Source: Escherichia coli
GTDB taxonomy: Bacteria > Pseudomonadota > Gammaproteobacteria > Enterobacterales > Enterobacteriaceae
NCBI RefSeq assembly: GCF_003334385.1
Contig: NZ_QOWN01000040.1
Reading direction: 5' to 3' (one strand)
Length of the DNA stretch: 38,787 nucleotides
A program made the position numbers. Of the stretch, positions 33,001-36,000 are shown in pieces (positions within the stretch are counted from its first letter, which is position 1; each line of letters starts with the position of its first letter).

Positions 33001-36000
33001 ACAGCAGACACATACTGCTGACAGTATATTCTGCCGTCCTGTCATAAACAGCAGAAACAAAAGAATAATATTACCAAATGCATTCTTCTCTGTATATCCA
33101 CAACACCATGAAACAATTACAGAAAATAACAGACAAACGAGAACTTTTTTATTCACTGCATGGATGCAGAAATTTCTTACCCCACTCAGAAAATATTCGG
33201 ATTTTTCTTGCGCGCGTAACTTACCTGGCATTCTTTACACCGATACAGACAGTTAATTAAATATTCATGGGCACTTTATGTGAAATAGTTCACAAAAGTA
33301 TCTCACACCTGTACATTCCGGCACCTATGATACCAACAAGAATATTTTCAACAACTCATTCCCTGAATTCATAAGGCACAAAATGATTATAACGCCTCAC
33401 AACCACGAGGCGTTAATCATAATGCATTTAGTGTATAAATATACCTTTTGCTCTTTTAGAGAGATAAATATACAAAATAAAAAGAACAGCAATAACGCCA
33501 TCAATAAATATGTTTTCAATACTTCCATCAGGAGTATAATCAATCCCAACAATATAAAAACAATAGACATAACTTACAGCATAATAAACGATATAAACAA
33601 GATAAATATACAGAAGCAATCTGTTAACATGTCTTTTTCTTCTAAAGAAGGAGAGTATAAAATACATACATAACACAGAAAGAATAATAAACACCCCTAT
33701 AGATATAATAAAATACTCTTTTACCTGTGAGTCTTCGTGCAGCGACATGTACAATGAATAAAAAGTTCCAGCCAGACTCAGCCTTGTGATAAATATATAA
33801 ACAACAGACAAAAGAATAATAAAAAGAACTATACCAAACTTTGGTCTTTTTTCTTTTTGTAGCATTACAGCATTTTCCTTCATCATATACACGTTCTTTA
33901 CACTATTCCTGTAAAATTTCGATAAAAGCTCATCAGATTTTGTGTGAGGACGGTGACAAAAAATGAGTCCGGTTTTTAAAGGGTATATGCAGAAACCATC
34001 CGTGTGGTTCCGGTCAGCGTGTCTGAGACCTCAACATCCCGGGTGATGATTGTCATTCCGGACTGACGCAGCCGCTGCACATCTGCGGCAATACGCTGAA
34101 TACCAAGCCAGAACAGACCATCCAGCGCGGTGACAATTAACCCGCTTTCCAGCGCCAGTTTCAGCCGTGCTGTCGGAGCTTTAACCTCCCCGGCTATATC
34201 AGTGAAACAACGTGTCGTCATGCCATAGCTGTCCACCCGCCGTATTCGCGTCGCAAGACTGTAACTGAAGCTATCAGGCACGCCGGATAAGTCATTCTGC
34301 AGACTGTATACACATCCCCGCTGCCGCTCATTGAATACGACTTTTTTCTGGCTGAGCAGCCATTCCCGCCGCAGGCTGTCAATCATCTGCGGTGTCCGGG
34401 TTAACAGCAGACGAAACGGCAGTTCAAAACTGGTCACGTAATCAACATTCAGCAAAGCTGTCCGTAGCCGCTCCCTGGCACCTGCTCCGGTATCACGGCA
34501 TTCACGCATGACATCTGCCCACTGGCGCATCAGTCGCGGAGACTCATTCCTAGCCCTGAACTGATATTTCTCAATCTGATAATCAATATGTTCCTGCATA
34601 CCGTCACCGGATATCTGTTGCCGTATCATCACGGATATCAGCGTACTGGAATTCATGCCCTGCGTGAAGTATCACACTGCCAAAAAAAACACACCTGAAC
34701 GTTATTATTTCGCAATATTAATTGCACCTGTTTTCATAAATAAAAAGGAGACGATGAAATGATAAAATATATCTTTTCACTCACCATTATTTTTTCCGCT
34801 TCTCTCTGTGCCGCACAGATTCAGGGGCACGTCATCCGCGTTCTTGATGGTGATACGCTGGAAATATTACAGGACAAAAAGCCTGTCAGGGTCCGTCTGG
34901 CTAATATTGATGCACCGGAAAAGAAACAGCCCTTTGGACGCTGGTCAGCCACTCAGTTGAAGGACCTGGTGGCCGGAAAGCCCGTAACCGTGCAATACGC
35001 GCAGACAGACAGGTATGGCCGTATTCTCGGCCGGGTCTATACCGCTGACGGCACAGAAGCAAATCGCTGGCAGGTCCGTAACGGCGCTGCCTGGGTGTAC
35101 CCGGACTACAATAATGACTATACTCTCCCGCCGCTCCAGCGTGATGCCCGCGCCCTGAAGCGGGGATTATGGGCAGATAAAAATCCGGTACCACCATGGA
35201 CCTGGAGAAAACAGAATAAAGAATAATTATTTGCTGATATGAAGAAAAAAACCATTTCAAAGAAAATAAATGGCAAAAATACAGCATGGGGAAAAATTGC
35301 CATTTTTACCGCCGCGTTATTTTTAATATTTGCTGTCAGCTGGCCGTAATAAGCAGAATAACAGAAAGGTGTAAAAATGAACCTGGTTGATGCATTTGTC
35401 ACTAAAGTGATATCCGGACCGTATGAAGAATACGGAAAATGGTGGGTGGATGTTGAATATATTTCCTGGGGAGTTCCGGGTAAAAGCCGGCTCATGTTTG
35501 ACTCACGGGAACAGGCACAGGAAGTGCAGGAAGGTTTTCGATTTTTAACCTGAGCATATTTTGTTAAAGGGCAGAAGGCGGTGACCCTCTGCCCTTAAGT
35601 ACGTTTCCGGGATTATCAGTCAACCAGTTCCCGGATCAGTTCCAGGATTGCTATCACTGCGTTAGCCACAGCAACAACCGCCCTGAGAACGATGATTAAC
35701 CTGTTAATCATCCGCTTCTCCATCAATGGAGAAAGAACACCGTGGTTTGCCCTTACATTGCCTGTCGCCACGTTTTCTATAGTGTCAGTTATAGACAGTT
35801 CTTCTCCGGCCAGAGCACCAAAACCAGCACCACCTGATGTTTTGGCCAGGACTTGCAACCTGTTCATCCCGGTGAACGATATGCCGGAAAGAACGTGCCT
35901 CAAAGCTGACACACCGAGTATATACTTATACTGTGCTTGCAGAAATATTATTTCAGCCGTATTATTTCATAGTCAGTTATAGGCAGTTATCTTCCGGTCA

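Follow-up and report, generated by a model that had tools for sequence, protein, structure and literature searches.

The locus at positions 33976–35226 of a stretch of Escherichia coli DNA of 38,787 nucleotides (assembly GCF_003334385.1, contig NZ_QOWN01000040.1), the whole of which is referred to here as the window, raises the question of whether two divergently transcribed genes constitute a regulator and its target or lie side by side for other reasons. The first of these genes (33976–34599, minus strand), which we will refer to as the HTH (helix-turn-helix) gene, encodes a 207-amino acid (aa) DNA-binding protein of the ECs1377 family with two winged-helix domains, as indicated by NCBIfam and Pfam profiles, the lengths of its homologs and an AlphaFold2 model. 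The second (nuc; 34759–35226, plus strand) encodes a 155-aa nuclease of the SNase fold (thermonuclease family) which, based upon Pfam, a PDB search and primer matches, is an ortholog of pCT_057 from the plasmid pCT. An earlier note on this DNA had described the divergent pair and suggested that the product of the first gene may regulate nuc. Both open reading frames (ORFs) are genuine genes, being annotated as such in near-identical plasmids; the suggested regulation found no comparative support in the chromosomal contexts of the family, the synonymous divergence of the two genes, an insertion in pCT or the spacer that separates them. The window is part of a conjugative plasmid of the IncK2/Z type (I-complex, MPF_I, MOBP), for which matching plasmids are found in E. 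coli and Shigella, the top match being pJKHS006_1 (99.4%). On balance, it is probable that the HTH gene and nuc are two independent accessory backbone genes of the IncB/O/K/Z plasmids, whose juxtaposition is specific to this lineage and which do not form a dedicated regulator–target module.

The co-occurrence expected of a dedicated regulator–target pair is not observed, and the pairing is confined to one plasmid lineage. In a chromosomal context set consisting of 80 ECs1377-family loci from 80 species, no homolog of the SNase was found within 4 kb of the ECs1377 gene at any locus (0/80), and clustering of the neighboring genes identified no neighbor family that was common to more than nine of the 80 loci. 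The chromosomal members of the family behave as orphans: in Kosakonia, Citrobacter, Enterobacter, Serratia, Rahnella, and other genera, they are scattered over loci that vary in content. The contexts that were sampled include genomic islands, integrative and conjugative elements, fimbrial, type VI secretion system (T6SS) and contact-dependent inhibition loci, a phage-plasmid of Yersinia pestis and a conjugative plasmid of Vibrio. Homologs of the nuclease with 57–76% full-length identity are present in at least 5,000 plasmids of the PLSDB database (IncF, IncX, IncI2, IncN, and others), and in at least 4,400 plasmids the nuclease occurs without an ECs1377 partner.

Synonymous divergence (dS) is also uncoupled between the two genes. 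When the window was compared with the plasmids p86, p510016, and pO104_H21, the dS values for the HTH gene were 0.12, 0.12, and 0.40, respectively, and the corresponding values for nuc were 0.03, 0.57, and 1.26, so that within one plasmid comparison the two genes differ up to about four-fold. Hence, recombination has exchanged one of these genes without the other. Both genes are under purifying selection, the ratio of non-synonymous to synonymous divergence (dN/dS) in these three comparisons being 0.11–0.18 for the HTH gene and 0.10–0.20 for nuc.

A natural experiment in which the HTH gene is separated from nuc is provided by pCT, the epidemic IncK plasmid in which Cottell et al. (2014) inactivated pCT_057, described as a "putative parB-like nuclease" (PMC4083329). 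The nuclease from the window differs from the pCT_057 protein in one residue and, because the window contains exact matches to both of the published recombination primers (34773–34812 and 35098–35137, with zero mismatches, the confirmation primers flanking nuc), it is the product of the same gene. Stability, growth, and biofilm were unchanged in the pCT_057 mutant, and the mutant plasmid lost in competition against wild-type pCT (PMC4083329). Comparison with the pCT record (locus 1896–4698) places a 2,639-bp insertion sequence (IS) of the IS21 family (ISSso4, with istA/istB) in the spacer between the two genes, at the site corresponding to 34667–34672 of the window, where 6 bp are duplicated. 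This element cuts the spacer into two halves, leaving 73 bp on the side of the HTH gene and 92 bp on that of nuc, and the two genes, which are thereby 2.8 kb apart, are both intact despite its presence. Provided that pCT expresses both genes, the promoter of each must be located within its own half of the divided spacer.

Several observations weigh against the independence of these genes. Divergently transcribed regulators often control their neighbor. The HTH gene was identified in 532 plasmids, in approximately 490 of them at 80% or higher protein identity, and in 486 of the approximately 490 IncB/O/K/Z plasmids that carry it (about 98%) it forms a contiguous divergent pair with nuc. This arrangement holds down to 80% nucleotide identity, and a single hybrid plasmid of the IncF/K2 type was found in which decay has affected the HTH gene and nuc together. 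Additionally, the stability of the mutant is reported inconsistently within the pCT knock-out paper (PMC4083329). Since the pair is kept in such a large proportion of its copies, regulation of nuc that is restricted to the IncB/O/K/Z lineage, where the ECs1377 protein would bind to the spacer, repress or activate nuc, and probably also regulate its own gene, deserves consideration, and both the divergent layout and the joint decay are in its favor. However, we regard this form of regulation as rather unlikely, in view of the lack of co-occurrence beyond the lineage, the uncoupled dS values and the IS in pCT, where neither gene was lost upon their separation and the knock-out of nuc still had a phenotype.

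The spacer, where any such regulation would take place, has different limits from those given in the earlier note, which had the HTH gene encoding a 226-aa protein. The ORF does reach to an ATG at 34656, but the true start of the gene is the ATG at 34599. The longer version was rejected as the homologs (60–67% identity) are 207–215 aa long, align from M20 and span the whole of the 207-aa query, and as the NCBIfam profile begins only at residue 36 of the longer protein. Furthermore, pO104_H21 (80% nucleotide identity) has no counterpart of the ATG at 34656 and its frame is broken there by an indel, whereas the alignment retains the ATG at 34599 together with the 20 preceding bases. The RefSeq gene call is likewise 207 aa. 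With this start, the intergenic spacer is 159 bp long (34600–34758) and its GC content is 40%. The spacer of about 100 bp that the earlier note had described as AT-rich (102 bp, 36% GC) is thus too short; the 73 bp that are proximal to nuc have a GC content of 30%. The description of the HTH gene as GC-rich did not hold up: its GC content is 53%, in comparison to 52% for both nuc and the whole window, and it is GC-rich only beside its AT-rich downstream neighbors.

Within this spacer, two copies of CGGATATC (34608–34615 and 34632–34639) are located 9–40 bp upstream of the start of the HTH gene (34608–34639). These copies, which contain GATATC, can also be read as an inverted repeat GATATCTGT/ACGGATATC and are a candidate for an autoregulatory site. 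Together with two short blocks that are conserved in the plasmid alignment, viz. CTTCACG(C/G)AGG and AATATTAA, they are the elements of the spacer that are consistent with regulation within the lineage. On the other side, in the alignment with pO104_H21 the first copy of CGGATATC is kept but the second is not, most of the nuc-proximal spacer is not kept at this level of identity (80%), and the alignment collapses exactly between the two genes. The motif is also missing upstream of the chromosomal ECs1377 homologs, and no conserved operator was found in the spacer, nor any motif that it has in common with the upstream regions of other members of the family. A promoter/terminator scan of both strands detected no consensus sigma-70 promoter in the spacer; a relaxed scan gave weak matches only, which overlap the start of nuc. 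An Rfam search of the region 26000–38787 produced no match inside the spacer. The ribosome-binding site that had been noted for nuc is borne out: a Shine-Dalgarno sequence AAGGAG (34745–34750, plus strand), as read from the sequence, lies 8 nt before the ATG, and its AGGA is kept in all four of the aligned plasmids.

The HTH protein belongs to the ECs1377 family, its score with the NCBIfam profile NF052300 being 296.8 bits against a cut-off of 190, with the match covering positions 2–190 of the 190 in the profile. The protein also matches phrog_24243, a family without an assigned function. In near-identical plasmids the RefSeq labels are "helix-turn-helix domain-containing protein" or "ECs1377 family protein" for this gene and "thermonuclease family protein" for nuc. 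The earlier note had considered this a protein of unknown function whose C-terminal third may be a DNA-binding domain, and had proposed structure prediction as a check. Although the protein can now be placed in a named family, the first part of this description stands with regard to function, as a search of the literature on ECs1377 or HTH_39 yielded nothing functional. The second part is upheld by a weak match of the C-terminus to Pfam HTH_39 (PF14090; E = 1.1e-4, 22 bits) and by the AlphaFold2 model (pLDDT 93.4, pTM 0.86), in which the C-terminal winged helix-turn-helix (wHTH) is made up of helices 158–165 and 170–179 and a beta hairpin at 185–206, and which also shows a second winged-helix domain. 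Structure searches with this model gave wHTH matches and found no full-length relative outside the ECs1377 family. A sequence search of the PDB gave no match up to E = 10, and PADLOC gave none for this protein. The family is narrow, with 107 representatives, mostly fragments, at 50% clustering among 1.8 billion proteins. A match to it is nevertheless present, mostly on the chromosome, in 2,800 of the 5,426 complete E. coli genomes. The predicted fold suggests that the HTH protein is most likely a stand-alone transcription factor with targets of its own, possibly including its own promoter.

The identification of the nuc product as a nuclease of the SNase type was correct. The Pfam SNase domain (PF00565) is matched at E = 8.1e-22 by residues 44–140, over model positions 1–107 of 107, and thermonucleases in the PDB are matched at E = 3e-12 in an alignment that starts from residue 25. 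The equivalents of residues D21, R35, D40, E43, and R87 of the Staphylococcus aureus nuclease are all kept (the DGDT, R-L-A-N-I-D-A-P-E, and YGR segments being aligned). The equivalent of T41, a residue which in the S. aureus enzyme gives a backbone ligand, is Ala. Family membership and these catalytic residues indicate that the 155-aa protein is probably an active nuclease. An N-terminal signal peptide had also been recognized previously, and we concur: a predicted Sec signal peptide, MIKYIFSLTIIFSASLCAA (34759–34815, plus strand), with cleavage before Q20, can be read by eye, with K3, a hydrophobic core, the residues C-A-A at positions -3 to -1 and no lipobox. The protein was thus rightly regarded as carrying an export signal; "secreted" is likely to be too broad, as its destination, the host being Gram-negative, is most likely the periplasm. 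Its scores against the equivalog models of NucI (NF047694; 45.4 bits versus a cut-off of 250) and EcnA (NF047969; 38.9 versus 180) are below the cut-offs; hence it was rejected as an ortholog of either and is a member of the family only. PADLOC produced only a generic SNc match. SNase is the sole Pfam domain and, as there is no ParB/Srx domain and no parA annotated nearby, identity with a partition ParB of the P1/F type was likewise rejected. From these features, the 155-aa protein would be made with its Sec signal peptide and enter the periplasm, where it would act as a Ca2+-dependent endo/exonuclease upon DNA that reaches the envelope. Such an enzyme would be dispensable for plasmid stability, yet would aid the competitiveness of the plasmid, as in pCT.

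If the HTH protein has targets of its own, these could also lie on its other side. An AT-rich insert (31687–33892, 28–40% GC) downstream of the HTH gene carries, in the same orientation, the genes for a DUF2569 membrane protein (33428–33892, minus strand, 28% GC), 83 bp downstream of the HTH gene, and for a 514-aa phosphoethanolamine (PEtN) transferase (31687–33231, minus strand). The latter is not MCR, its scores being well under the MCR, EptA, and CptA cut-offs. The block of these two genes is also found in pJKHS006_1, pO104_H21, pSTM32_108, and pL2, where genes for SPATE autotransporters come after nuc. The HTH protein could control this AT-rich cargo and, elsewhere, genes for an acyltransferase, DUF1294 or T6SS proteins; it would then be a regulator belonging to mobile elements or a counter-silencer of envelope genes that were acquired. 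The orientation, the short gap and the base composition of the cargo accord with this proposal, and comparable co-oriented envelope-related genes follow the homologs in Y. pestis pTP33, Rahnella, and Kosakonia. We nevertheless consider it improbable, since the HTH gene occurs without the PEtN-transferase/DUF2569 block in the majority of IncK2 plasmids, no neighbor is conserved over the 80 loci, and several homologs are followed by convergent genes. A broader form of this idea, that the ECs1377 proteins are an unrecognized class of mobile-element regulators, e.g., counter-silencers at the edges of acquired envelope or secretion loci, appears to us very doubtful; if it were true, the HTH protein here would activate, from the AT-rich flanks, the DUF2569/PEtN-transferase cargo as well as the exported nuclease.

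The ParB protein of RP4 is also an SNase homolog. A role of the nuclease in plasmid maintenance, i.e., in multimer resolution or stable inheritance as in RP4 parCBA, is in keeping with the annotation of pCT_057 as parB-like (PMC4083329), but it is extremely unlikely, since the knock-out left the stability of pCT unreduced (PMC4083329), nuc has the HTH gene, a 58-aa ORF and dqlB toxins as its neighbors and no resolvase or parA/parC adjacent to it, no ParB/Srx domain was found by Pfam, and the signal peptide points to an extracytoplasmic site of action.

The HTH gene and nuc are placed in a variable stretch of the plasmid, the layout of the window being traW-traX-traY-excA, then this stretch, and then trbA-trbB-trbC, with the hok/sok (pnd) locus on one side of the pair and trbA on the other. 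Several other features of this region were also observed. A 528-aa protein (27908–29494, plus strand) that combines a TnsA-endonuclease-like domain with a segment resembling sigma-70 region 4 corresponds to pCT_066, an "unusual sigma factor" whose knock-out in pCT was without phenotype (PMC4083329). The hok/pnd post-segregational killing locus includes a full-length sok antisense RNA (29782–29938, minus strand; Rfam RF01794, 125.6 bits). A 74-aa ORF (31231–31455, plus strand), which is unannotated by RefSeq in neighboring plasmids, scores 31.7 bits against a cut-off of 32 for the ANR (AraC negative regulator) family; in Y. pestis pTP33 an ANR gene (50–268 of the locus stretch) is located about 4 kb from the ECs1377 homolog. 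Starting 13 bp past the stop codon of nuc, an unannotated 36-aa ORF (35239–35349, plus strand), MKKKTISKKINGKNTAWGKIAIFTAALFLIFAVSWP, with one hydrophobic helix and no obvious ribosome-binding site, could be either a small membrane protein or a chance occurrence. Upstream of trbA, a module is present twice (35377–36900), which consists of a 58-aa ORF (35377–35553, phrog_8110, with a partial copy at 36115–36243), a DinQ-like type I toxin (dqlB; minus-strand ORFs ending at 35616 and at 36300–36410) and an AgrB-like antisense RNA (35973–36060 and 36716–36801; Rfam RF02891). Lastly, the 3′ end of trbA (38170–38250) encodes a repeat, TETTETTETTETTETTE, at the C-terminus of TrbA, and as the length of this protein varies from 432 to 447 aa across related plasmids, the number of repeats may vary among them.

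Annotations of the HTH gene and nuc exist in hundreds of plasmids, and a knock-out of the nuclease has been published; hence neither is new in kind. However, with at least 5,000 records, few accessory genes are as common in the conjugative plasmids of enterobacteria as those for exported SNase-type nucleases, and the sole phenotype recorded for the plasmid SNases is the loss of competitiveness in pCT. The ECs1377 family, in turn, for which the two-winged-helix model is confident and distinctive, is found in about half of the complete E. coli genomes. The plasmid pair would be a convenient place to study both the role of the plasmid SNases and the function of the ECs1377 proteins.

Among known systems, the closest is pCT itself, which has the same gene at the equivalent location, with the hok/pnd region on one side and trbA on the other. 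The two plasmids differ in that pCT has an IS21-family element in the spacer, whereas the DUF2569/PEtN-transferase insert is extra to the window. Nuclease A from S. aureus belongs to the same fold family, and the two proteins share the catalytic and Ca2+-binding equivalents and an N-terminal export signal; its sequence is distant, however, T41 is replaced by Ala in the window protein, and the host of the latter is Gram-negative. For the HTH protein, the nearest counterparts are the ECs1377 members in chromosomal islands of the Enterobacterales, which are 207–215 aa long, have 58–67% full-length identity with the plasmid copy and the same predicted two-wHTH fold, and differ from it in having no SNase neighbor.

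The I-type transfer region of R64/ColIb-P9 (IncI1) likewise contains a non-essential nuclease gene, nuc, whose product is EDTA-resistant, but this is a different gene in another place, between traK and sogL. The R64/ColIb-P9 nuc product is an enzyme of the HKD/PLD family. Identity of the window nuclease with nuc from R64/pESBL, or with yggA, was rejected, as the genes and their positions are different. In the slot upstream of sogL, where Nuc is found in R64/pESBL, the window has a 193-aa AT-rich ORF (6648–7229, plus strand) whose N-terminus is hydrophobic and for which neither Pfam nor NCBIfam gave a match. A six-frame regular-expression scan of the whole window also detected no HxK(x)4D (HKD) motif, which marks the plasmid Nuc enzymes of the R64 and pKM101 type, and, as the HKD nuclease is missing from the window, the SNase is the only recognizable nuclease of that kind in this part of the plasmid. 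The thermonuclease genes of IncF, IncX3, IncI2, IncN, and other plasmids are, like nuc, accessory backbone genes of conjugative plasmids, although they are without an ECs1377 partner; the copy in IncF plasmids is flanked by finO and a ymoA/hha-like gene (PMC2762410). Finally, YokF, a prophage-encoded membrane nuclease of the SNase type from Bacillus subtilis, degrades plasmid DNA in transit between cells (bioRxiv 10.1101/2025.10.26.684598). The likeness is that of a functional analogy, both being nucleases with an SNase domain and an export signal that are encoded by mobile elements, whereas YokF differs in its Gram-positive host, its length of 296 aa, its extra C-terminal modulator domain and the nanotube-mediated transfer upon which it acts.

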